Below are positions 181 through 13,359 of a DNA stretch of 64,000 nucleotides, in pieces. The stretch covers positions 128,001 through 192,000 of the forward strand of contig JBHLJY010000004.1 in the NCBI GenBank assembly GCA_048887225.1, given 5' to 3'. Source of the stretch: Candidatus Hodarchaeota archaeon (GTDB taxonomy: Archaea > Asgardarchaeota > Lokiarchaeia > Sigyniarchaeales > SOKP01). Made by a program: the position numbers and the translations under genes. Position 1 is the first letter of the stretch, and each line of letters begins with the position of its first letter. The notes under the pieces were generated by a model. It saw only the letters and a program-made list of their open reading frames with translations. It was not told the origin of the DNA and did no database searches.

Positions 181-576
181 ATGTCAAATAATAACCTTAA
201 AATCTATTTTTCACCTGATTTAAGTGATAGAGAACGAGCTTGTTTTGAAACGGGCATAAAACTAGGTGCTCTTTATCATATTTTAAGTGGCATTCCTATT
301 TCTTCTAATGATAAAATAATTAAATCTATTGAGGAAGGAATAGAAGCAGCAGTTTCTTGCCAACCTTATGTAAAGTCAATTAATATCAATTTAGATAAAG
401 AGAAAATTATAGGAGATAAGAATACTGAATTTGATTACGACGAAATAACTGGAAAAATAATCCGTGCAGAGCTCGTACTCGAATATGAATCAATAGAAAT
501 TTTAGCTAAAATCGATTGGGTTGAAGATCTACAATATCCATTAATGTTTATTGAAAAAATTCATACGAAAAAGTAG
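181..576 (+). CDS. mptD: archaeal dihydroneopterin aldolase
   Basis: YF..LSDRERACFETGIKLGALYH...G.P N-terminus, QPYV and YPLM motifs of the MptD/DUF381 family; pterin context. Confidence 0.85.
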   Translation: MSNNNLKIYFSPDLSDRERACFETGIKLGALYHILSGIPISSNDKIIKSIEEGIEAAVSCQPYVKSININLDKEKIIGDKNTEFDYDEITGKIIRAELVLEYESIEILAKIDWVEDLQYPLMFIEKIHTKK

Positions 577-613: not shown

Positions 614-1306
614 TTATGGAATTAAATAACTGATATATTTGCTTACAAGATCTATAGTTTTAAGCGCACGTTTATTTTTACCAAACCTTTTGATATTTCC
701 CATATGATCTATTATTTCATCGTGAATTACATTAAATAAAGCGAATTCATTTTTTTCTTTAGCAATTTTTAATCTAGTTGCTAACACGATAATTTCTAGT
801 GCTAAATTTTCAGCCCGGTTGAAGAATTTGAAAGAATCTTTTAACTTTTTGAAAGCTATTATATCTATTGTAAATTCACTAACTTCCGTTTCACCAAAAC
901 CATTTTTTTTGGTAGTTTGATCTTCTTTAACAACTTTACCGAATAAGATTAACCAAGCTTTAATAATGTAAGGAATTTTATCGCTAGGGATTTCATGATA
1001 TTCATAGTATTTAATAGGAAATTCTTTTATTCCTATTTGAGAGTTTGGCTCCTTTAAAGCTGCTAACGCGTACAAATACACATCATCAACAAAGTTTACA
1101 ACAATCCAGCCGTTTTTTTTTAAATTTCTTAGAGTTATTGTCTCTGGGTAAGGGCTGATCTTAAGAAGATTATCCTCACTAAATCTAATCCCCATGCATG
1201 CTGTATTAGGTTTGACGTTATCTTTTTTATCAGGTTTTGAAAAAGTTGTGGCTAAAATTTCATATAGATTACCTTTTTCCAGCCCGAAATCTCTGTAATT
1301 AAACAT
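614..1306 (-). CDS. DUF447 family protein (Orf22-like, associated with H4MPT biosynthesis)
   Basis: YEILATT...PNTACMGI, T.RNL, FNRA...LE..V.ATRL motifs. Confidence 0.75.
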   Translation of the reverse strand: MFNYRDFGLEKGNLYEILATTFSKPDKKDNVKPNTACMGIRFSEDNLLKISPYPETITLRNLKKNGWIVVNFVDDVYLYALAALKEPNSQIGIKEFPIKYYEYHEIPSDKIPYIIKAWLILFGKVVKEDQTTKKNGFGETEVSEFTIDIIAFKKLKDSFKFFNRAENLALEIIVLATRLKIAKEKNEFALFNVIHDEIIDHMGNIKRFGKNKRALKTIDLVSKYISYLIP

Positions 1307-1408: not shown

Positions 1409-1879
1409 TTATTTTTTTCTTTGCCTTTTAAGAGTCTCCTCGATTTCAAGCAATATTCCTAAACTTTCCTCAGTATCAAAATATGCATATGCTTGTCTTC
1501 CTATTTGTCCAGACTGAATAACAGGATAATTAAGCTTTTCAAATAGTTCAATATACGATTGCATACCATCTACAAAAATAGCTACATGGTGAAGCCCTTC
1601 TCTTCCTTGATCTAAAAATTCTCTATAAATACACTCACCCTCTACCAATTGAATAAGCTCTATTTGTAAATTGAAATTGCGGCTGAACGCTATTTTATAA
1701 GTTACATCAGAATCTTTTCCCCTATACTTGATCGTACCGCTGATGCTTGGCATAATTGTAAATTTTGGTATATTAAATAAATTTTCCATAATTCTGGCTT
1801 GTTTTTCAACATCTTTATAAACATAACCAAATTGGTCAATTTTAAGATTACTTAAATCGATTTTTAAATTACTTTCCAT
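1409..1879 (-). CDS. VOC superfamily protein (methylmalonyl-CoA epimerase/glyoxalase-like)
   Basis: QFGYVYKDVE, QIELIQ, FL..GREGLHHVA, YAYFDT...LGILLEI. Confidence 0.8.
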   Translation of the reverse strand: MESNLKIDLSNLKIDQFGYVYKDVEKQARIMENLFNIPKFTIMPSISGTIKYRGKDSDVTYKIAFSRNFNLQIELIQLVEGECIYREFLDQGREGLHHVAIFVDGMQSYIELFEKLNYPVIQSGQIGRQAYAYFDTEESLGILLEIEETLKRQRKK

Positions 1880-1939
1880 TTTTTCTCAACAAGAAATTTA
1901 ATTTTATTAAATTATATTTCAAATTTAAAGTATAAAAAA

Positions 1940-2818
1940 CTATAATTCGAATTTTGTAACTTTCTGTCTCTTATCTATTTTAGGATAGATTTTACCAGTT
2001 ATAGGAGGAGAACTGTTATAAATTTCCTCGATTTCAATTAATCCAAACTCTATATCTTCAAGTTTTTGAACACCTGTGAAAGTTCCTTTTACTACCTGGC
2101 TTGCCATATCGAAATTTGCTGCAAAAACAGCAACTTTAGAGTCGATGGGAATCTGTAATAAATCCTCCTTTAAAGCAGTTAGAGGAAAATAGAGTCTATT
2201 GTGATCGACGGCTTGGAGTTGAAGATGTGGGATAATAATCGGATAATCATCCGAAGGATCAATATAAGCAATAGCTCTAACACCAATACCGGCCGTAAGA
2301 AGTTTATATCCAATAACATTTAATCGTTTTTCTTCAAGCCCGGTTTTCGCTGATTTTACAATCTGTTTGGCAATTTTTTTAGCAATACCTCCAAATGGCA
2401 ATTCTCTAATAGGAGTGGTTGCTACAATATAGTTGTAGTAGACTTTATAGATATTAATATATGTGAAATACCTCATAAAGTCTGACTTGTTAAAATATTC
2501 TATATCTTCTCCTTCAGTTTTCGTATGACTGAAATCTGCTTTTACTTGGATGAATTTAAAAGGGGCCTCCGCAGTCATGTAAAAAAGCCCTTGTTTTGGA
2601 TTCTTTTGGACATATTCTTTGCTTAAACCTTTAGCAAATTGCCCCCACACTATTTGATTTTTAGTTATTGCCCTGTTACTTGAAATTAAGGTTAAATGAG
2701 GCCAACCACGCGGATCTACAGTTGATATTAATTTTACCATGATTTCTGGTTGTGTAAAGTTAATAATTTCATCTGAAAGTTCGGAAATCCACTGAGGTAA
2801 TTTATCATCCTTATTCAT
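1940..2818 (-). CDS. pyridoxamine 5'-phosphate oxidase-like FMN-binding split-barrel protein (probably two barrels)
   Basis: KLISTVDPRGWPH, with a second copy AIAYIDPSDDYP. Confidence 0.6.
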   Translation of the reverse strand: MNKDDKLPQWISELSDEIINFTQPEIMVKLISTVDPRGWPHLTLISSNRAITKNQIVWGQFAKGLSKEYVQKNPKQGLFYMTAEAPFKFIQVKADFSHTKTEGEDIEYFNKSDFMRYFTYINIYKVYYNYIVATTPIRELPFGGIAKKIAKQIVKSAKTGLEEKRLNVIGYKLLTAGIGVRAIAYIDPSDDYPIIIPHLQLQAVDHNRLYFPLTALKEDLLQIPIDSKVAVFAANFDMASQVVKGTFTGVQKLEDIEFGLIEIEEIYNSSPPITGKIYPKIDKRQKVTKFEL

Positions 2819-2868
2819 TTTTTAATCATCCAAAATAAATATATTAGACCTTTATATTATTTAATTCT

Positions 2869-3885
2869 TTATTCGCAAGATGGTAATTTAATATCTTTCT
2901 TTTTTTGACCCTTATCATCGCTACGTTCAACTCTTTTAGTCATTCCGGACCATTTCACATTTTTAACGCCTGTGTTCTTAGCAAGTTCGTAAAAATGTTC
3001 CAATTTATCTTTAGTCATTAAAGGTTCTTCCTTTAAAACCCAATCAAGATCTAACCTTTCGTATTTCGCTGTACATAGATTGTTAAAACTTAAAAGATCC
3101 CATCTTTCGGGAATATTATTTAAATTATTCACTATGAACTCTCCTATGGCTCTAATATTATCATCAGTAGCAGTAAAGTGAGGTATAATCGGAGTCCTTA
3201 TCCACATTTTTTTACCATTTCTATCTATGTAATTCGAAATTAAAACTGCATTTTCTAAAATCCGTTCATTTGGAACCCCAGTATATTCTTTATGTTTTTC
3301 AGAATTTATTAGTTTTATGTCTAAAAGAATTAAATCTACATATGGGAGTAATTTTTCGTATATACTATAAGAAGCATATCCGCACGTATCTAGCGCAGTA
3401 GAAATCCCATTTTCCTTACATTTTTTCAAAAATTGTTCTATGAACTCTGGTTGCTGTGTAGGTTCACCTCCCGAAATTGTTATTCCTCCTTTAGATTTAG
3501 TATAATAGACTTTATCTTTTTCAACTTCGCGAAAAAGGTCGTCTATATTCCACCATTTACCTAACATATTTAATGCTGTGCTTGGACATGCTTCTGAACA
3601 TTCTCCACAGCTATTACATTTTTCTCTATCAATATTTAAACCATCTTCATCAAAAGATAAAGCAATTTGTTGGCATGTTTCAATGCAAGTCTTGCAACCG
3701 ATACATTTATGTTTTAACCATTCAAGCTGGGATTTTTTAAGGATTGATTCAGGGTTGTGGCACCATATACATCTTAAAGGACATTGCTTCATAAAAACTG
3801 TTGTTCGAATGCCTGGACCGTCCTCAGTCGACATTTTTTGAATCTGAAAAATTAGTCCATTTTCAGCTTCTACCATTTTTATCAA
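2869..3885 (-). CDS. glycyl-radical enzyme activating enzyme (radical SAM with 2x[4Fe-4S] insert)
   Basis: DGPGIRTTVF, CPLRCIWCHNPES, ferredoxin motifs CIGCKTCIETC and CNSCGECSEACP, GGITISGGEP, DTCG. Confidence 0.95.
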   Translation of the reverse strand: MIKMVEAENGLIFQIQKMSTEDGPGIRTTVFMKQCPLRCIWCHNPESILKKSQLEWLKHKCIGCKTCIETCQQIALSFDEDGLNIDREKCNSCGECSEACPSTALNMLGKWWNIDDLFREVEKDKVYYTKSKGGITISGGEPTQQPEFIEQFLKKCKENGISTALDTCGYASYSIYEKLLPYVDLILLDIKLINSEKHKEYTGVPNERILENAVLISNYIDRNGKKMWIRTPIIPHFTATDDNIRAIGEFIVNNLNNIPERWDLLSFNNLCTAKYERLDLDWVLKEEPLMTKDKLEHFYELAKNTGVKNVKWSGMTKRVERSDDKGQKKKDIKLPSCE

Positions 3886-4041
3886 TATTACTTTAATAAC
3901 AATATTATAGGTTTATATCTAATTTTCTCACTTAATTCATGTATATAATTATATGCCAGATAAAAAATATTGCGCTAATTTTTTGAAACAGTTGCTTTTT
4001 AACTAAAAAAAATAGAAATAGGATTTTTCCAGAAATATGCC

Positions 4042-5451
4042 CTAGAGATCAAGTTCTCTTAACTTCTTAGCATTTGCTTCTATTTGTTCTGAAGTAATAT
4101 TATAAAATTTCCAGAAGAGGAAGATTCCAATGAATACAATTAACAAAGGAAATAGTGCTATTTGAATTCTTAATCCCATAAGTTCAGCAGGACTTGTTGA
4201 TCCTGATTTGTAGCCTGTAAATGTTCTCACTATCCAAAATACTATTGCTGTATAGGCAATTCCTACCCGTGAGAAAAATAGATATGTTCCATTATATAAT
4301 CCCTCCTGACGTTTTCCAGTAGATACTGCTGCTTCATCAATTACACTAGAAAATAATGGCATTGTCATGCTTATTATAGCTCCATCAACACATCCTGCAA
4401 TAATAAAGATAATAATTGCCAATGGAAGACCACTCGGTCCAACTGGAACAAATAGGAGGGGGATACCCATACAACTTAACATGACGGCCCCGATTAATGC
4501 AACCCGTTTGATTCCAATCCTGAAAGATAGTTTATACCAGAGAGGTGCCGCGGCTATAACCGATATTACATAAAACAATAAAATAATTTCACCTATTTTT
4601 GACATTTGTAAAATATCTTCAACAAAAAAAGGCAATGAAGCCATAACAAGTCCCATAGCAGAAGTATAACAGACATATAAAGCCAAATAAGCAATAAAAT
4701 TTTTATCCTTCAAGGTAATTTTCATCCCTGTGAAGAAAGGCACTGCTTCTTCTTCTCCTAGGCGAGCTCGACGCTCTCTTATTTCTGGTCCTTCACGTAC
4801 ACCAGGTATCATTAATAAAAAGATACCAAAACTAACTCCCGCAACTACAAACGCTTGGATTGCCCATCCAGTTTCTCCACCAAGTATCTCGATAATTAAT
4901 ACAGGTATTAATATACCAAGTAAAATTCCAATCGTTTCAAGAACAGTTGTAATTGTACCAGCTATTCTTCGATCCTTACTATCACGAAATTTATCGGGAA
5001 AAAGAGCTACTCTATTGATATCAAAGAGTGAAAACACAGCATCATAAAGACACATGAAAAATAATAGCCAGAAAAACACTCCTAAATGTCCTATTTGGCT
5101 GATTGAGGGAGCCATAAAGAGAAAAATAACAACAAAGCACCAAGGTATCCCGCCCATAATAATAAATGGAAATCGTTTACCCCAACGTTTCGTTAAACGC
5201 TTTGATTTATCGCAGAGATAACCTAAGAGTGGATCATTAAACATGTTAAATACCATATAGATGATCATAGCAATAACATACAAAGTGATATCCAAACCGA
5301 CTACGGTTTGATAGTAATAAGGTAATTGTTGAGTATATAATTGAGACATCATTAATCCGATAAAATTTCCAAGCTGAAATGATGTAATTATCTTCTTTGG
5401 ATATCTATTTATGATGAGCTCATCGTTATCCTTTCGTACTACTTCCGTCAT
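4042..5451 (-). CDS. MFS transporter, GPH/MelB-like family
   Basis: About 12 hydrophobic segments; FNDPLLGYLCD..TKRWGKRFPF; GKRQEGLY. Confidence 0.9.
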   Translation of the reverse strand: MTEVVRKDNDELIINRYPKKIITSFQLGNFIGLMMSQLYTQQLPYYYQTVVGLDITLYVIAMIIYMVFNMFNDPLLGYLCDKSKRLTKRWGKRFPFIIMGGIPWCFVVIFLFMAPSISQIGHLGVFFWLLFFMCLYDAVFSLFDINRVALFPDKFRDSKDRRIAGTITTVLETIGILLGILIPVLIIEILGGETGWAIQAFVVAGVSFGIFLLMIPGVREGPEIRERRARLGEEEAVPFFTGMKITLKDKNFIAYLALYVCYTSAMGLVMASLPFFVEDILQMSKIGEIILLFYVISVIAAAPLWYKLSFRIGIKRVALIGAVMLSCMGIPLLFVPVGPSGLPLAIIIFIIAGCVDGAIISMTMPLFSSVIDEAAVSTGKRQEGLYNGTYLFFSRVGIAYTAIVFWIVRTFTGYKSGSTSPAELMGLRIQIALFPLLIVFIGIFLFWKFYNITSEQIEANAKKLRELDL

Positions 5452-5486
5452 AAATTTCCTCTCTAATTTTGATTGCTCCTAATTTT

Positions 5487-7121
5487 TTATAATCTTTTTC
5501 TTAAAGGCATTCCAGATAATGCTCTTGTAAAAACTCCTTTATTAAGCGCAAGGACACCATTTACAAAAACATACTCAATACCCTCGGAATACAACCTTGG
5601 ATTTTCGTAAGTAGCCTTATCAATTATCGTATTTTTATCAAAAATGGTGATATCTGCCCAATAACCTTCTTTAAGCAGACCTCGATCTCTTAATCCCAAT
5701 TTTTGAGCGGGATATGAGGTCATTCTTCTTATTGCATCGTGTAATGTAAGTAATTTCTCTTCTCGAACATATTTCCCTAATACTTGTGTAAAAGTACCAT
5801 TGGTATATGGATTTGGAAAATACTCAGAATCTTCTGGAAGGATCCTCCCATCTGAAGCGAACATTGTAAGCGGATGGGTAATTGTTATTATATTATCCTC
5901 TTCAGTTATCGAAAGATAAGTCCCTCCTACTGCACCTTCTTGTTCGATTAAAACATCAATTACAACCTGCCTTGGATCTATATTTTGTTCTATTGAATTT
6001 TGATAGACTGTTTTTCCATTGAATATTTTACTTTTTGGAGCATTTATGTATACTTTTTTCCAATCTTCTCTTTCTTCTATTTTCAGAAAACTCTTCACAA
6101 TTAAATCAATTTCTCCGTAAATTTTATTTTTTAGATCGCTGTCAGTTTTAGATTTCTTTAATATTTCAATTGCTCTCGGAATATCTACTTTTTCTTTAGA
6201 AAGGTAAACCCATGGTGGTGTTAATACAAATAAAAAAGTATGATTAGATGCTTGAGGAAAAACGTCAAATGTGATATCTAAATTTTCTTCACGAGCTTTC
6301 TCAACATATTTATAAGCCTTTCTTATATCTCCGCGCCAAAATCCAAATGGTTTAAAATGATTAATTTGAACAGGTATTCCTGATTTAGCGATTTTAATTG
6401 CCTCTTTAGTAGCTTTAACTAATCCAATCGCAAATCCTCGAAAATGAGTGGCATAAATTCCATCATATTTATTTACTACCTTGCAAAGTTCAATAATTTC
6501 GTCGGTTTTAGCAAAAGAACCTGGTGGATAATCTAACCCTGTAGACATACCGAAAGCACCATTTTTCATCTCTCCCTCAAGGATCTCTTTCATCTCCTCT
6601 AATTCTTCGGAAGTTGGTGCTTTATTATTCAAACCTAAAACGTTAGCCCTTATCATTGAATGACCAATTAATGGAATCACATTAATAGGTATTTTTCTTT
6701 GTTTTAACGCCTCTAAATATTCATTCAAATTTTGATAAGCAAATTCTTTTTCAAAATCTTCACTCGCACCAAGAATTGCTCCGAACATTTCAATATCATC
6801 TTTTTCAATTTTATCAGAATTTATTGGTGGTATCATAGAAAAACCACAGTTCCCTATAACGTGAGTTGTAACCCCCTGTGTTAATACATTTTCACCACGG
6901 CTTAATAGAATAGTTTGATCAGAATGAGTATGAATATCAATAAAACCAGGTGAAACTATAAGTCCTGAGGCATCAATCACATCTTCAGCGTCATCTTCTC
7001 TTATCTTCGTTTCGATATTTTGAATTTTACCATTATCAACTAACAAATCTGTTTTAAACCACGGATTACCCGTTCCATCAACAACTCTTCCATTCTTGAT
7101 TAAATAAGATTTTGGCGTAAT
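5487..7121 (-). CDS. N-acyl-D-amino-acid deacylase-like amidohydrolase (start extended to ATT)
   Basis: PGFIDIHTHSD, GNCG, GMSTGLDYPPG, ADITIFD. The open frame continues upstream of the tracked ORF as ITPKSYLIKNGRVVDGTGNPWFKTD, the conserved family N-terminus. No ATG/GTG/TTG occurs before the in-frame TAA; SD-like AAGGGGA precedes ATT. Confidence 0.85.
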   Translation of the reverse strand: MTPKSYLIKNGRVVDGTGNPWFKTDLLVDNGKIQNIETKIREDDAEDVIDASGLIVSPGFIDIHTHSDQTILLSRGENVLTQGVTTHVIGNCGFSMIPPINSDKIEKDDIEMFGAILGASEDFEKEFAYQNLNEYLEALKQRKIPINVIPLIGHSMIRANVLGLNNKAPTSEELEEMKEILEGEMKNGAFGMSTGLDYPPGSFAKTDEIIELCKVVNKYDGIYATHFRGFAIGLVKATKEAIKIAKSGIPVQINHFKPFGFWRGDIRKAYKYVEKAREENLDITFDVFPQASNHTFLFVLTPPWVYLSKEKVDIPRAIEILKKSKTDSDLKNKIYGEIDLIVKSFLKIEEREDWKKVYINAPKSKIFNGKTVYQNSIEQNIDPRQVVIDVLIEQEGAVGGTYLSITEEDNIITITHPLTMFASDGRILPEDSEYFPNPYTNGTFTQVLGKYVREEKLLTLHDAIRRMTSYPAQKLGLRDRGLLKEGYWADITIFDKNTIIDKATYENPRLYSEGIEYVFVNGVLALNKGVFTRALSGMPLRKRL

Positions 7122-7308
7122 TTTAATCCCCTTTATTAATTTTTATTTATAACTTCCTTTTTATCCATATATAAATGTTGTATTTTTAGTAAAACTGATG
7201 AATTTTTAAAATGAGATATCGAATTAAAAAACAATGAATAAAACTAAAATCAAAAAATACAACTCAATCAGAAATTAAAAAAAGAATTTCTTGCTGATTT
7301 AAAATTAT

Positions 7309-9801
7309 TCATATCTTATGAGACTCTCGTGCGATTATCTCGTTTTGCAATTCTCTCCCGATCGCAGTAAAGTAAGCGTTGTACCCTGTAACTCTTACTA
7401 GTAGATTTTTGTAATTCTGTGGATGCTTTTGAGCATCTTTTAACATTTCAGCATCTAACATATTTACTTGTAAGCAAGTACCTCCATTCTCAACATAGCT
7501 CCTTAGATAGGATTTGAATTTTTCCTTATGTTCGGGATCTACAAGAATACTTGGATTAAATGTTATTGTATGGGAAGCACCATTTGGTAAATAATTAATG
7601 TATTCTCCTGTGGCAGTTTTACCACCCAACGCTATTCCAATAGAATTAGCAACAGAAGTGGGACCTTTTGTATCTGCTCCGTTTGTAGGGCAAATCGCGT
7701 TTGATAAGAATGTGCCACTATTCCGACCATTTGGAGTTGCCACTGTAAAATGAGCGTCCGCTCCAGCCCAATAATTCCACGATAACATTCCTGGACGATA
7801 TTGAAAATTAGTTGGTGTTTTATATTTCCAGCATTCGTCTGTCCATGTTTTCATAATCACTCTTGCTAGTTCATCAGCATCATTTTCGTCATTTCCGTAT
7901 TTCGGAGCTTTATTCTTTAAGATTGTTTGCATAACTTCAAATCCTTTGAAATCATTCATTAATGCTTCTTTAATTTGAGATATTGTATATTTTTTATCTT
8001 CATAAACCAGCTTTTTAATTGCTAATAATGAATCAACCGTAGTAGCAAATCCAACTCCCTCAACCGTCACAAAACTTAATTCTGGGCCACCATTTCTAAC
8101 ATCTAATCCCTTTTCTATACAACCTTGAACGAAAGCTGATAAATATGGTGTAGGGAGATATTCTCCGCGAAGTTCTTCACATAAATTGTTCGTATCCACT
8201 GTGTATTTTATGATGAATTTTATTTGTTCTTTCCAAGCGTTCCAAAACTCTTCCCATGTTTTAAAATTTTCAGGTTCACCAGTTTCTGGACCAATTTTTT
8301 CCCCAGGTTTTGTAGCTCTATCGTTTCCTAACATATTTCTTCCGTTCCAAAGCGTTAATTCTATGCTTTTGGCCAAATTAGGATTACAATTAACCGTTCC
8401 TGAACGATCATTTCCTTGCATAGTGTTTTCTAAGCACCCTACACAAGCATAATTCCAAGCTTCTTCTTTGGGTATTCCTTCTTTAACCATACCGGCAATA
8501 CTCCTCTCGTCAAAATTTATTAGAAAAGGAGCTCCTTGAGACCTTGATATCATTTCAATTATTACATCAAGCAATCTATCTGGAGAATTTCTATGTAACC
8601 TTACGTTTGGTTTTGGCTCCAAGATAGGCGACCACTCGTCAATAACCTCTAAAATTATATAAGTTAGGTCATTCGTTAAGTCTTCTCCACTAGAGCCGCA
8701 TCCAGATAAAGTCATTAGCTGACCAAACGCAGACGTAATGCCCTGCTTGCCGGTTCTTATCATGGCATCATACACAGTATTACAATGGAACCAGAAGCTT
8801 CCTAATATATCTTTGGCAAATTCTTTTGTAATGTTTTTCTGGTCTATCACATCTTTTTTATATAAAGACCATAAATGTTGATCTGTTCTACCAAAAGAAA
8901 GTCCAGGTCCGGGATAAGACTCTTCCGCCATTACTAGCATATGTGTAAGCCATATCGCTTGAAGTCCTTGCCAAAAGGTTTCAGCAGGTTCCCATGGGAC
9001 CGTTTCTAAATTTTTTGCCATTTGTTCAAGTTCTTCAACTCTTTCAGGAGTAGAAGCTTCAATTTTTAATCTTCTACATTCCTCTGCATACTTTTTTGCC
9101 AGTTTTCTTGGAATTTCAGAAGCTATTATTATTGCTCTAAGTTCCGCTCCTTTTGGACCACTTTTATCTTCTTCACTTAATTTAAAGTATCTTTCCCTTG
9201 CTTTTTCATAATAAAATTTAAATCCTTTCTTAACAATAGTCTCGTAATCGGGAATAATATGACCTGCGACAGCACCGAGATTTCCAAAGCCTGATTGATG
9301 ATATTTAAAAACTTCGTCTCTATTTCTTATATTTTTTTTCCAATACTCTTTTGCTTCTTTTTGATTAAAACATTTCGATAATTGCGTGTTAAAACGTCCC
9401 CCCGCAATTAAATCATTTTCAGAAATAATTTCTTGAGGAATATAATTAAGCATAACGTCTTCAAAAAACATTATTCTACGTTCTGGCAAGGATAATTCCC
9501 AAAAATCTTCTGGTAATTTAACTGGTAAAGCCATCGATCTAAAAGAAGAAGCAAAAACTCCTTTGTCGTTTTTTCCCAATATTTGAATATAATAAAGCAC
9601 TTCCGGTGATATATAATAATCTCCTTCGAACCATATTATATCCCAATCAGTGCCAGTCGTGAATGGCATAAATTCGTTATTCCATTCCCGTTCTACACCC
9701 TTAAAATAATAATCTCTTAACCATTTTGATCTTGCAGATAAATCGTGAGGTTCAGCAATAGGATATTTTGGTCCTTCTTTTAATTTTTCAGTATCGCTCA
9801 A
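7309..9801 (-). CDS. glycyl radical enzyme (PFL2/dehydratase-like class), substrate unknown
   Basis: 830 aa; Gly loop LLVRVTGYNAYF, Cys loop ACVGCLENT, SFGRTDQHL, PKYGND, ATPNGR. Confidence 0.95.
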   Translation of the reverse strand: MSDTEKLKEGPKYPIAEPHDLSARSKWLRDYYFKGVEREWNNEFMPFTTGTDWDIIWFEGDYYISPEVLYYIQILGKNDKGVFASSFRSMALPVKLPEDFWELSLPERRIMFFEDVMLNYIPQEIISENDLIAGGRFNTQLSKCFNQKEAKEYWKKNIRNRDEVFKYHQSGFGNLGAVAGHIIPDYETIVKKGFKFYYEKARERYFKLSEEDKSGPKGAELRAIIIASEIPRKLAKKYAEECRRLKIEASTPERVEELEQMAKNLETVPWEPAETFWQGLQAIWLTHMLVMAEESYPGPGLSFGRTDQHLWSLYKKDVIDQKNITKEFAKDILGSFWFHCNTVYDAMIRTGKQGITSAFGQLMTLSGCGSSGEDLTNDLTYIILEVIDEWSPILEPKPNVRLHRNSPDRLLDVIIEMISRSQGAPFLINFDERSIAGMVKEGIPKEEAWNYACVGCLENTMQGNDRSGTVNCNPNLAKSIELTLWNGRNMLGNDRATKPGEKIGPETGEPENFKTWEEFWNAWKEQIKFIIKYTVDTNNLCEELRGEYLPTPYLSAFVQGCIEKGLDVRNGGPELSFVTVEGVGFATTVDSLLAIKKLVYEDKKYTISQIKEALMNDFKGFEVMQTILKNKAPKYGNDENDADELARVIMKTWTDECWKYKTPTNFQYRPGMLSWNYWAGADAHFTVATPNGRNSGTFLSNAICPTNGADTKGPTSVANSIGIALGGKTATGEYINYLPNGASHTITFNPSILVDPEHKEKFKSYLRSYVENGGTCLQVNMLDAEMLKDAQKHPQNYKNLLVRVTGYNAYFTAIGRELQNEIIARESHKI

Positions 9802-9936: not shown

Positions 9937-10467
9937 TTATTTTAACCTTTCTTCGGAAAGCTTTAAATGATCTGTCTCTACTTCGACAAATGCTTGAAAT
10001 ATCTCTTTAACACGAGCATTTTCGGCTTCTGCTGCTGCTTGACCGTAAAATTTAATAGCTCTATCTTCACGACTATGAGATTCTTCGAGGTTTGGCTTAT
10101 ATTCTGGTGCACATTTATCGTATTTGGGGAATTCCACTTTATCTAATTTTAGGATTTTTTTCCAAACTGAAGCATGCTCGCCTTCTACTTTAGCAAGAAT
10201 TTTAAATAATTTCTGACCATCTAATTCTGGGGTTTTCTTACTAGCACATTTATAGAAGATATTATTAGAAATTTCGACTTCTAACGCTTTTTCAGAGTTG
10301 GCTTTATCTTTTTCATTTAAGTCAACATCCCATGCTCCTGTATCATCGTATTCCTTTGAGTTTATAAAGTACTTTTCATATGCACCACAGAAAGGGCAAC
10401 GAGAGGGCGCTTCTTCTCCTATATAGGCTTCACCACATATTTTGCATACAAATATTTGAACAGAAAT
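9937..10467 (-). CDS. reverse rubrerythrin-like protein (N-terminal rubredoxin + ferritin-like di-iron domain), ATT start
   Basis: Frame open from ATT at 10467: ISVQIFVCKICGEAYIGEEAPSRCPFCGA...ALEVE...FY...VEGEH...SRE..AIKFY...VETDH (176 aa). SD AGGGTGA lies 6 nt upstream, with an in-frame TGA just before. The track shows only the last 66 aa. Confidence 0.9.
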   Translation of the reverse strand: MSVQIFVCKICGEAYIGEEAPSRCPFCGAYEKYFINSKEYDDTGAWDVDLNEKDKANSEKALEVEISNNIFYKCASKKTPELDGQKLFKILAKVEGEHASVWKKILKLDKVEFPKYDKCAPEYKPNLEESHSREDRAIKFYGQAAAEAENARVKEIFQAFVEVETDHLKLSEERLK

Positions 10468-10691: not shown

Positions 10692-11789
10692 TTGTATAGA
10701 GTTATTGGAATTGACCCAGGCAGCTTAACATGGGATTTTTTTGGATTAGAAGATAATAATATAATATTAGATACTTCAATACCCTCCAAAGAAATAATGA
10801 AAGATCCCCAAAAAGCTATTACTGTCATAAAATCTGTTGAAAATATTGATTTAATGGTCGCACCGAGCGGATTTGGTCTTCCATTAAAAAATGTAAGTGA
10901 TTTGACGGAAAAAGATATTTTTTTCACATTGTTAAAATTTGAACAAAAGGATAAAGAAAAACTAGTAGGACTCGGAGAAATTTTACGGCTAATAAAATCA
11001 GCAAAAATCCCGGGTATTATTGTTCCAGGAGTTAAACATTTACCAACTGTTCCAAGATATCGAAAAATTAATAAAATTGATATGGGAACCGCCGATAAAT
11101 TATGCACTTCTGTTGTCGGAATTAGAGATCAAATCGAAAGATTTGAGGTAAAACCTGAAAATGTTAATTTCATTCTGGTCGAAGTAGGTTATGGATTTAC
11201 CGCTGTACTTGCAATAGAAAATGGTCAAGTAATTGATGGTATTGGAGGTTCAAACATTATGGGATTTAGAGCCTGTGGCAGTTTAGATGGGGAATTAGCA
11301 TATTTAATTAAAGAGATAAAAAAAAACAATATTTATAAAGGCGGTGTTGCGTCGATTGCTGGCTATTTAGATTTAAGTTTAAAAGAAATAACATTATTAG
11401 CTGAAAAAGACATTCAAATAAAAACTGCCCTTAAAGCTTATATTTCAAGCGTTAAAAAAGCTGTCTTTGGAATCTCTTCCTCTTTTTCAAGTAAAGAAAA
11501 AATATCGGAAATATTATTAGCTGGACGAGGTGCTGAGTTAAATTATTTAAGAGATCGATTCATTCGAGGATTAAAAGATGTTGCACCCGTAAGAGTAATG
11601 AAATCTTATAGTCAAATTGCAAAACGTGCCGCACAAGGCGCTGCTTTTATAGCCAAAGGAATTTTAGGCGAAAACGATCTATTTGAATCAATTATTAATA
11701 ATTTAAAAATCAAAGAAGCTTCCGGTACTATTTTAGACGATATTTTTATACCATTTAATAAAGAAAAATTGATAAGTGATTTAGATTAA
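10692..11789 (+). CDS. DUF1464 family ASKHA-fold (butyrate kinase-like) protein
   Basis: VIGIDPGS, APSGFGLP, PGVKHLPTVP.YRKINKIDMGTADK, DGIGG, LDGELAY. Confidence 0.85.
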   Translation: MYRVIGIDPGSLTWDFFGLEDNNIILDTSIPSKEIMKDPQKAITVIKSVENIDLMVAPSGFGLPLKNVSDLTEKDIFFTLLKFEQKDKEKLVGLGEILRLIKSAKIPGIIVPGVKHLPTVPRYRKINKIDMGTADKLCTSVVGIRDQIERFEVKPENVNFILVEVGYGFTAVLAIENGQVIDGIGGSNIMGFRACGSLDGELAYLIKEIKKNNIYKGGVASIAGYLDLSLKEITLLAEKDIQIKTALKAYISSVKKAVFGISSSFSSKEKISEILLAGRGAELNYLRDRFIRGLKDVAPVRVMKSYSQIAKRAAQGAAFIAKGILGENDLFESIINNLKIKEASGTILDDIFIPFNKEKLISDLD

Positions 11790-13359
11790 TATTCTCATCA
11801 TTACTGGATTAAGAAGTTATCCAACAATTAAGAAAGTAATAAAGCATATTAAGGAGCATAAAATTACCGTAGAAAAAGCTCCTGTATCTATATCTGCCTT
11901 TCTCTCAGAGGAATTAACAGAGACCATCTTAAAAAATAAATCGCTTTCTGAATACATTTTAGTTTTACTTCCAGGATTTGTTCAATGGGATACAACTAAC
12001 TTGGAAAAAAAATTTTCACTAGATATTAGAAAAGGACCTGAATTTGCTTCAGATCTCCCTATCATTATTAAAAATCTTGATAAAATTAATTTATCTAATA
12101 AAATCCCGGCAAACAAATTGTTTGAGATTTCTGGAGAAAAAGAATATGAAAGAATTGTTAAAGAACAGATTGAACGAGCTAAAAATAATATTGGACATCA
12201 TACTTTTTATATCAACGAACAAAAGTCAGATCTTATAATTGGTCGTAATCTCCCTCCACCTATTATAGCAGAAATCGTAAATTGTACGGAAAAAAGCGAT
12301 ACAAACATTATTAGAAAAGCGAAACATTATGTCGGTTCTGGAGCGGACATTATTGATATTGGTTGCGTGTCAAATAAACCAAACCCAGAAAGAGTAAAGC
12401 AAATTCTCAACCTTATAAGAAATAATTTTAATGTCTTAATTAGTATAGATTCGATGGAAACTAATGAAATTATGGCCGCCGTTGATGAGGGAATTGATTT
12501 AATTCTGAGCTTAGATTTAGGGAGTTATAAAAATTTTTTGAACCTTCCCAAAGATATTCCTATTGTTATACTCCCTACAAATGTTAATGCTGGCTATTTC
12601 CCTAAAGATCCCGAAACTCGAGTAAAAAACTTATTTAAATTAACTGAAGAACTACAAAAAAGCGATTTTAAGAAGTTAATTGCTGATCCTTTGTTGGAAA
12701 CACCAATTGCTCCGGGAATTTGTAATTCGTTAGAAACTTATTTTCTTTATAGAAAAAAAATTAAGGAGAAAAAGTACCTATCGATGGAATTACCACAATT
12801 TTTTGGAATTTCTAATGTTATTGAGTTAATGGATATTGATTCTGTTGGAATAAATGGTTTATTAGCAAGCATAGCGGTTGAATTAGATATGGGAATATTA
12901 TTTACAGTTGAACATAGCACAAAATTAATGGGGGGTGTTTCTGAATTAAAAGAAAGCGTTAAGCTAAATTATATCTCTAAATATAAGAAAACACCCCCAA
13001 TCAATCAAGGAATATCTGGAGTTTTTAAGGCAAAGGGCAAGACCGCCCAAGAAACACCAAAAATCTACGAAAAAGATGCGATTATAGTAGATCAATTGAA
13101 TCCAGAATATATACCAGACGAAAAAGGATACTTTAAAATTTATATTAATCATTACGTAGGCAATATTTATGTATTGCATTTTTCTAATGATCATAAATTA
13201 CTTCATACTTTAATTGGGACAAATGCGGAAGCATTAAGTAAAAAGGCAATCGAAATGAACATTACTAACAATATTCAGCATTTAAACTATTTAGGTAGAG
13301 AACTCAGTAAAGCGGAATTTTCTCTATTCTTGGGTAAACCTTATATTCAAGATGTATAA
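11785..13359 (+). CDS. dihydropteroate synthase-like protein with N-terminal Orf20-type domain and C-terminal DUF4346 domain; ATT start
   Basis: Open frame from ATT 11785: INILIITG...ISAFL...VLLPG..QWD..LEKK...KGP.FASDLP; pterin barrel GADIIDIG, ISIDS, LIADP, N..ELMDIDSVGINGLL; C-terminal D.KGYFKI...HLNYLGRELSKAE...Y.QD. Confidence 0.85.
   Translation: MNILIITGLRSYPTIKKVIKHIKEHKITVEKAPVSISAFLSEELTETILKNKSLSEYILVLLPGFVQWDTTNLEKKFSLDIRKGPEFASDLPIIIKNLDKINLSNKIPANKLFEISGEKEYERIVKEQIERAKNNIGHHTFYINEQKSDLIIGRNLPPPIIAEIVNCTEKSDTNIIRKAKHYVGSGADIIDIGCVSNKPNPERVKQILNLIRNNFNVLISIDSMETNEIMAAVDEGIDLILSLDLGSYKNFLNLPKDIPIVILPTNVNAGYFPKDPETRVKNLFKLTEELQKSDFKKLIADPLLETPIAPGICNSLETYFLYRKKIKEKKYLSMELPQFFGISNVIELMDIDSVGINGLLASIAVELDMGILFTVEHSTKLMGGVSELKESVKLNYISKYKKTPPINQGISGVFKAKGKTAQETPKIYEKDAIIVDQLNPEYIPDEKGYFKIYINHYVGNIYVLHFSNDHKLLHTLIGTNAEALSKKAIEMNITNNIQHLNYLGRELSKAEFSLFLGKPYIQDV

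Follow-up and report, generated by a model that had tools for sequence, protein, structure and literature searches.

Introduction

A 2026 review (PMC13450708) lists the same glycyl radical enzymes (GREs) as are scored in this study as characterised eliminases or isomerases, and a CXE motif is common to them. The Glu of this motif hydrogen-bonds the substrate hydroxyl, and in glycerol dehydratase (GD) His164 serves as the acid. According to the same review, every GRE of known function that resembles pyruvate formate-lyase (PFL) is bacterial, and the archaeal clades are without experimental validation. Here we describe an archaeal PFL-like GRE, which is encoded within a cluster of six genes in a 64,000-nt stretch of DNA from Candidatus Hodarchaeota archaeon (contig JBHLJY010000004.1). 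This whole stretch is called the window, and coordinates without a locus name are given on it. A preliminary description of the window had interpreted the six genes as one new GRE pathway of an Asgard archaeon. Our comparison with related loci shows that a trio of these genes, encoding the GRE, its activase and a tandem split-barrel protein, is co-inherited in both Asgard archaea and anaerobic bacteria. Judged from its sequence, the GRE is an uncharacterised CXE-type enzyme that fits no characterised GRE class.

Results

The GRE gene (7309..9801, minus strand) encodes a protein of 830 aa with a PFL-like domain (PF02901, 435 bits) and a Gly_radical domain (PF01228, 79 bits). As the preliminary description had noted, the translation contains a single active-site Cys within VGCLE and, near the C-terminus, the glycyl loop RVTGY. 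The PFL-like barrel, a C-terminal loop of the RVxG[FWY] type and a cognate radical-SAM activase encoded alongside identify the protein as a member of the GRE superfamily. Its predicted catalytic residues are Cys456, Glu458 and His181, and Cys456-Leu-Glu458 forms the CXE loop that marks eliminases and isomerases. This GC456-L-E458 segment is invariant in 79 homologues and in two further Asgard subfamilies, which are described below as subfamilies 2 and 3. The longer loops VGCLENTMxGNDRSGTV, YPGPGxSFGR and RPGMLSWNYW are likewise invariant from archaea to bacteria among the 79 homologues, and all three subfamilies retain GCLENT...DRS.TV, Y.G.G.S.GR, LSWNY and RVTGY. Such invariance of the active-site loops between archaea and bacteria argues for one shared substrate and one shared reaction.

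The position of this GRE relative to known classes was assessed by the cut-offs of curated hidden Markov models and by bit scores against solved structures in the PDB. The GRE scores far below the cut-off of every curated model, including HypD (396 bits versus a cut-off of 1100), HpsG (392 versus 1000), HpfG (373 versus 1000), CutC (352 versus 1050), IAD (268 versus 1100), HPAD (199 versus 1150) and the PFL model TIGR01255 (82 versus 994). The solved eliminases and isomerases all lie at a similar distance from the GRE, within about 225-331 bits. Among the solved structures GD is the best match with 331 bits, followed by A. fulgidus PFL2 and IseG (308 each), CutC (306), HypD (304), HpsG (285), propanediol dehydratase (PD) and YbiW (272 each), HpyG (268), HplG (252), PflD (249) and HpzG (238). 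The succinate synthases TutD (173 bits) and MasD (216 bits) are more distant, and E. coli PFL (1h16) matches at 49 bits over the C-terminus only. Together with the single Cys, these scores agree with the preliminary description, which had taken the protein for an uncharacterised CXE-type GRE and not for a PFL. In pairwise sequence alignments His181 corresponds to His164 of GD and His160 of HypD. The positions of GD His281/Ser282, Asp447 and Tyr640 and of HypD Asp278, Ser334 and Tyr450 differ here, with Pro/Gly, Val, Leu and Asn. An ungapped extrapolation would set Ala177 and His181 at Arg189 and Gln193, which bind the sulfonate in IslA, with the aligned block beginning after these positions. 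From the motifs, we consider it fairly likely that the enzyme catalyzes an elimination or isomerisation on a hydroxylated substrate.

The activase gene (2869..3885, minus strand) matches TIGR02494 with 328 bits against a cut-off of 174. Its product has Fer4 matches at residues 59-107 and carries a CX3CX2C motif and two CX2CX2CX3C motifs, in line with the ferredoxin-insert activase recognised earlier; it is thus a radical SAM enzyme of the GRE-activating kind, and its ferredoxin insert is of the two-cluster type. The genome of the window encodes six full-length PFL-like GREs (C11, C32, C40, C17, C49 and C4; L081-L086, where L-numbers denote related loci), none of which reaches a curated equivalog cut-off. 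Only two GRE activases in this genome score over the cut-off, one on C17 and the one in the window. Since six GREs stand against two such activases, one activase may serve several GREs, or some activases may be too divergent for detection.

We then compared the neighbourhood of the GRE gene among relatives. One genome per species was scanned for GRE-encoding loci, which returned 80 loci and with the window gives 81, and conservation of the neighbours was scored by tblastn and by all-against-all clustering of the open reading frames (ORFs) of at least 70 aa in these loci. The GRE is 64-92% identical in Asgard metagenome-assembled genomes (MAGs), 69% identical in the cultured Promethearchaeum syntrophicum MK-D1 (locus L057), and 53-58% identical in contigs of Anaerolineae, Desulfobacterota, Spirochaetes and Clostridiales. 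Of the 81 loci, 63 have the activase gene beside the GRE gene and 61 have the split-barrel gene. The trio is present in 11 of 13 bacterial loci, and their flanks share nothing with the archaeal flanks. Even where the activase gene sits elsewhere, in L053, L055, L056 and L066, the split-barrel gene still adjoins the GRE gene. These data show that the three genes pass down as a unit in Asgard archaea and in anaerobic bacteria alike, and we regard it as highly probable that the three proteins form a conserved, uncharacterised functional unit. The earlier proposal, which saw a new pathway of one Asgard archaeon, is too narrow, since the trio also occurs in Anaerolineae, Desulfobacterota, Spirochaetes and Clostridia and is widespread in Asgard genomes.

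The other three genes of the cluster behave differently from the trio. The amidohydrolase gene is found in 6 of the 81 loci, each time inserted between the GRE and activase genes. A close orthologue of the GPH transporter occurs only in L001, and weaker relatives lie near the GRE gene in L019, L049, L054 and L056. The VOC gene has no tblastn match in the 80 loci, nor in the sampled genome of the same genus (G138; G-numbers denote sampled genomes, G000 being the genome of the window), where a zinc-finger gene occupies its position. Related loci have unrelated genes at this place between GRE and activase, of the SIR2-like, nucleoside-hydrolase-like, GH127 or GH4 kind. Thus the amidohydrolase and the GPH transporter are lineage-specific insertions, and the VOC gene is a strain-specific add-on outside the conserved unit. 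The preliminary description had offered conservation of the neighbours as a check on its pathway, and the outcome is divided, as the activase and the split-barrel partner pass it but the amidohydrolase, the transporter and the VOC protein do not.

Profile searches of 151 sampled Asgard genomes show how widely the family is distributed. Full-length family members score at least 1065 bits with the GRE profile and paralogues at most 670 bits. By this measure the GRE family is present in about 54 of the 151 genomes (at least 1000 bits, or a partial match), the partner profile matches 50, and 48 have both GRE and partner. Weaker matches of the partner profile led to two more Asgard subfamilies. In subfamily 2 the GRE is 44-47% identical and the partner about 20%, with the same gene order in all eight loci, and subfamily 3 keeps the gene order with a partner that is a single PNPOx barrel of 161 aa. 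This suggests that the tandem partner arose by fusion of a homodimer, since one Asgard family has the single barrel together with the same GRE clade. A FastTree phylogeny of the clade and the GRE paralogues of the window's genome places the whole clade as a monophyletic group on a long branch, apart from the five other GREs of this genome, with the bacterial GREs as sister to Asgard subfamily 1.

Several of these loci have features of their own. In subfamily 2 the trio is extended on the same strand by genes for a GNAT acetyltransferase, a 169-aa protein that fits no known family (with a faint ACT hit) and an MFS transporter (L098, 5481-7906, minus strand), with equivalents in L097, L099, L103 and L104. 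The single-barrel partner of subfamily 3 is encoded at 4424-4909 on the minus strand of L106 (G038:C1:301000-313000), where the gene before that of the GRE encodes an OYE-type flavin oxidoreductase fusion. In the same-genus genome the activase and partner genes stand at a contig start (L105, G138:C132:1-14000) and are preceded by a GH4 glycosidase gene. The family GRE was not found anywhere in the G138 assembly, in which the best match (503 bits) is a paralogue; this reflects either an assembly gap or a recent loss.

The split-barrel partner (1940..2818, minus strand) is a protein of 292 aa that by itself has no Pfam match. In an alignment of the window protein with 27 relatives (alignment A1), 24 of the 28 proteins weakly match PNPOx_N. 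An AlphaFold2 model (pLDDT 86, pTM 0.84) consists of two split beta-barrels, and a Foldseek search with this model finds 3in6, HupZ, 2htd and the D. vulgaris FMN-binding protein with TM-scores of 0.6-0.74 on the target. HupZ and 2htd are also its profile matches in the PDB. The double PNPOx-like protein of the preliminary description is thus confirmed and proves to be a real conserved partner of the GRE. It is probably FMN-binding, and a G-x-S-K motif that is invariant in the N-terminal barrel suggests a candidate phosphate-binding site. The C-terminal tail is conserved yet modelled at low confidence. The partner is encoded in single copy in the genome of the window, and the other five GREs there are without such a partner. 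A search for longer or fused forms returned one partial match that covers 22% of the query, and in the ESM Atlas the protein matches only clusters that are unnamed or weakly labelled as PNPOx. A complex predicted from the trimmed GRE (residues 101-830) and the trimmed partner (residues 23-292) scores 0.10, a value that speaks neither for nor against binding. In the literature on GREs with a PNPOx-type partner we found only LssP, of unknown role, which is encoded in a limonenylsuccinate synthase operon (PMC12583861).

The amidohydrolase (5487..7136, minus strand; Amidohydro_3/1) has the D-aminoacylase fold. It matches D-aminoacylase 1m7j with 215 bits and also matches the carbohydrate deacetylase OngB. 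Its metal-binding and catalytic residues are retained, and HTH, GNCG, ATH, NHFK and ASDG all have their counterparts in 1m7j. All six orthologues (the window protein and five others, alignment A2) carry substitutions at the alpha-carboxylate anchors, with HPR...FPR changed to NPY...FTQ and with Phe and His as the counterparts of Tyr and Ser. Both known groups keep these anchoring residues without exception (PMC12017989). Given this loss, the enzyme probably deacylates an N-acyl compound without an alpha-carboxylate, for example an N-acetyl amino sugar or amino alcohol. The listed ORF starts with TTG (5487-7046), but the frame is open and conserved for 30 further codons (about 90 nt) upstream, to an ATA/ATT at about 7134-7136, which is where the closest orthologue has its ATG in the alignment. 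As the conserved N-terminus runs on in frame, the true start is almost certainly at about 7136 and not at 7046.

The adjacent transporter gene (4042..5451, minus strand) encodes a secondary transporter of the GPH type, with 206 bits for MFS_2 and 151 bits for the GPH model TIGR00792, below its cut-off of 231. The importer and the probable deacylase together suggest that, in this lineage, the GRE is supplied from an N-acylated form of its substrate. Amide hydrolysis before radical elimination, as proposed earlier, may thus hold as a feeder step of the lineage, but it cannot define the general substrate of the GRE.

Neighbouring genes give some clues to the substrate. Glycosidase genes recur around the trio. 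GH4 lies directly before the activase gene in the same-genus genome, GH127 lies between the amidohydrolase and activase genes in L041, GH38 precedes the GRE gene in L039, which also has a PfkB sugar kinase and an MFS transporter, and GH3 is present in two Chloroflexota loci. In one complete genome a galactokinase-like GHMP kinase gene (GalK-like) directly follows the GRE gene. In 18 loci a sulfatase gene lies immediately upstream, and L056, in which the arrangement differs, has one too, while the genome of the window has only about five sulfatase genes. Genes for flavin ene-reductase-like proteins recur as well, of the NMO-like type in 16 loci and as the OYE-type fusion of L106. Other variable neighbours encode a carboxylesterase, a de-N-acetylase-like hydrolase and GPH or other MFS transporters. 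From this context, our tentative best guess is that the substrate is a small, sugar-derived hydroxylated compound. Substrates of the ethanolamine, choline, carnitine or hydroxy-amino-acid type were also considered in view of the deacylase, GNAT, sulfatase and esterase neighbours, and these are neither supported nor excluded.

The six genes of the cluster all lie on the minus strand at the coordinates first listed for them, and their Pfam and NCBIfam matches agree with the domains described earlier, including the VOC/glyoxalase-fold protein (1409..1879, minus strand; Glyoxalase_4, 53 bits). Directly upstream of the GRE gene and co-oriented with it is a rubrerythrin-like gene (9937..10467, approximately, minus strand), which is absent from the ORF listing because it starts with ATT, preceded by GGGTGA. 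Over 177 aa its product shares 95% identity with the orthologue in L001, and its family was assigned through the orthologue in L013. The rubrerythrin cluster (c7) occurs in 25 loci, and within Asgard subfamily 1 the gene is conserved next to the GRE gene on its upstream side. A non-canonical start is thus proposed for two genes, ATT for the rubrerythrin and ATA/ATT for the amidohydrolase, and in both cases the frame is conserved with orthologues that start with GTG or ATG.

The trio is embedded in a syntenic block of genes of pterin-cofactor type, which is common to 25-34 Asgard loci. In the window this block comprises an archaeal DHNA gene (181-576, plus strand), a DUF447 gene that follows the VOC gene in the same orientation (614..1306, minus strand), and genes at 10692-13359 (plus strand) that include DUF1464 and a pterin-binding protein with DUF4346 (12001-13359, plus strand). 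DUF447 (cluster c5) follows the trio in 27 Asgard loci and in none of the bacterial loci. A functional tie between the GRE and these flanking genes (DUF447, DHNA, pterin-binding protein and DUF1464) was set aside, since bacteria and several Asgard lineages retain the trio without the pterin genes.

Discussion

The explanation that we favour for these findings is a three-gene module that carries out an elimination or isomerisation on a sugar-derived substrate and that is supplied in this genome by a local feeder pair. We give this explanation as a whole a probability of about 60%. In such a reaction, the activase would install a radical on the Gly of RVTGY, and Cys456, turned into a thiyl radical, would take a hydrogen from a hydroxyl-bearing carbon, the hydroxyl of which would be deprotonated by Glu458. 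A substituent on the neighbouring carbon would then leave, most likely an OH protonated by His181 as in GD, to give a carbonyl product by 1,2-elimination or isomerisation. The flavoprotein may subsequently reduce or otherwise process this reactive product, or it may serve the radical or redox state of the GRE. In this genome the GPH importer and the deacylase would supply the substrate, and the upstream rubrerythrin would probably guard against peroxide.

Several observations weigh against this explanation. The active-site positions were placed by pairwise sequence alignment and not in three dimensions. Divergence of the partner is much quicker than that of the GRE and the activase (20-39% versus 44-58% identity), which is unusual for an enzyme that acts on the same product. 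Bacterial loci carry regulators of the GntR/FadR type, HAD hydrolases, a lactate-type MFS transporter and dehydrogenases, which would suit a small organic acid no less than a sugar, and the GNAT acetyltransferases of subfamily 2 together with the deacylase of the window could indicate an amine instead. Finally, the carbohydrate-related neighbours differ by lineage and none is universal, for which reason a sugar-derived substrate is only a best guess.

Among the alternatives, a role of the split-barrel protein as an accessory or redox partner, either as a subunit that controls or protects the radical or as an electron donor of the activase, fares best. This possibility, though less probable than not, accommodates several of the findings above, namely that the partner remains beside the GRE when the activase is encoded elsewhere, that it diverges faster than the GRE, and that it has a conserved C-terminal tail of low model confidence, as is often the case for docking segments. 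Multi-subunit GREs have accessory subunits whose termini touch the glycyl radical domain (PMC13450708), a PNPOx-like protein is encoded in a succinate-synthase operon (PMC12583861), and a rubrerythrin gene is a frequent neighbour here. However, the known GRE subunits are small HiPIP-like or rubredoxin-like Fe-S proteins that occur only in decarboxylases and succinate synthases, no fused form of the partner was found, and the five other GREs of this genome do without it. Whether it processes the product or acts as an accessory or redox partner, the split-barrel protein is a new kind of GRE companion either way.

We further speculate that the GCLENT clade might be a new functional class of GREs that needs a flavin-type partner and performs an undescribed step on a sugar-derived compound, such as a radical deoxygenation followed by a flavin-dependent reduction. 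In its full form this proposal is a doubtful one.

Less likely still is the linear pathway of the preliminary description, in which one compound would pass through all six gene products, by GPH import, amide hydrolysis, radical elimination and flavin/VOC processing. Its genes are indeed co-oriented, the gaps between them do not exceed 172 bp, and the amidohydrolase and a transporter are encoded between GRE and activase in six related genomes, which makes a feeder role in the lineage plausible. But 75 of the 81 loci are without the amidohydrolase, the VOC gene is absent from all 80 related loci and from the same genus, and relatives fill the slot between GRE and activase with the unrelated SIR2-like, nucleoside-hydrolase-like, GH127 and GH4 genes. 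Thus the six genes do not form one conserved pathway.

It is very improbable that the GRE is an alkyl- or benzylsuccinate synthase (Ass/Bss), as has been proposed for Hermodarchaeota and other Asgard GREs. In a study in ISME J 2021 (PMC8163825), Asgard GREs with a single Cys and 33-38% identity to A. fulgidus PflD were assigned in this way; they may belong either to the family described here or to its paralogues. The scores for TutD and MasD are below those for the eliminases (272-331 bits), and the neighbours are genes for glycosidases, kinases and sulfatases and not for beta-oxidation. Furthermore, the cluster has neither room nor an ORF for small subunits, as its intergenic gaps are too short for small Fe-S subunit genes, and no small neighbour is conserved among the ORFs of at least 70 aa. 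The preliminary description had likewise reported no bacterial microcompartment, P5C reductase, TRAP or small-subunit partners, and none is present among the annotated neighbour genes. A PFL, finally, can be dismissed almost entirely, even though databases name such proteins 'pyruvate formate lyase family protein' or 'formate C-acetyltransferase' and a reconstruction based on MAGs of Promethearchaeota scores PFL as present in almost every one (bioRxiv 10.1101/2025.03.11.642519), since the active site has a single Cys-x-Glu and not Cys-Cys, TIGR01255 is missed by a wide margin and E. coli PFL structures match weakly at the C-terminus.

The three-gene module has implications beyond this genome. 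The clade is present in roughly one third of the sampled Asgard genomes and in the cultured P. syntrophicum MK-D1, and since a cultured host carries the trio, its function is directly testable. Metabolic reconstructions count Asgard PFL-like GREs as formate-producing PFL or as hydrocarbon-activating Ass/Bss. Both labels look wrong for this clade, so that those reconstructions should be read differently. If the clade is indeed a new class, it would represent a widespread carbon-processing route in Asgard archaea and sediment bacteria, and a GRE with an obligatory flavoprotein partner would extend the range of known GRE systems.

Comparison with described systems places each component of the locus near, yet apart from, its closest relatives. 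The amidohydrolase has the subtype V fold of D-aminoacylase from A. faecalis (1m7j) and of the GlcNAc1A deacetylase OngB (9kb1) and keeps their HxH, Cys, His, His and Asp, but unlike these enzymes it is without the alpha-carboxylate anchors. The GRE resembles YbiW and PflD of E. coli (8id7 and 8id0), which are C-O lyases of 1,5-anhydrohexitol-6-phosphate, in being of the CXE type. Those enzymes act on sugar-derived polyols beside sugar uptake genes, a setting that matches the carbohydrate-type neighbours around the trio; however, they match the GRE at only 249-272 bits, no PTS genes are found here, and no flavoprotein partner is found there. The best structural match is GD (DhaB1/DhaB2) of C. 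butyricum (1r8w). With this enzyme and the other C-O-cleaving eliminases, PD, HypD, HpyG, HpzG and HpfG, the GRE shares the PFL-like barrel, the glycyl radical domain, the CXE loop and an activase with a ferredoxin insert, as well as the His at the position of His164 in GD and His160 in HypD. It differs from all of them in its scores below the cut-offs, in the clade-specific Cys loop GCLENT...GNDRSGTV and in the split-barrel partner, which is absent there. In having a dedicated protein other than the activase encoded with the catalytic subunit, the system is similar to HPAD with its gamma subunit, to BSS with beta and gamma, and to MASS with beta, gamma and delta. The additional subunits of those enzymes are small HiPIP-like or rubredoxin-like Fe-S proteins (PMC13450708), whereas the putative partner encoded here is a tandem flavin-type split barrel of about 290 aa beside an eliminase-like GRE.

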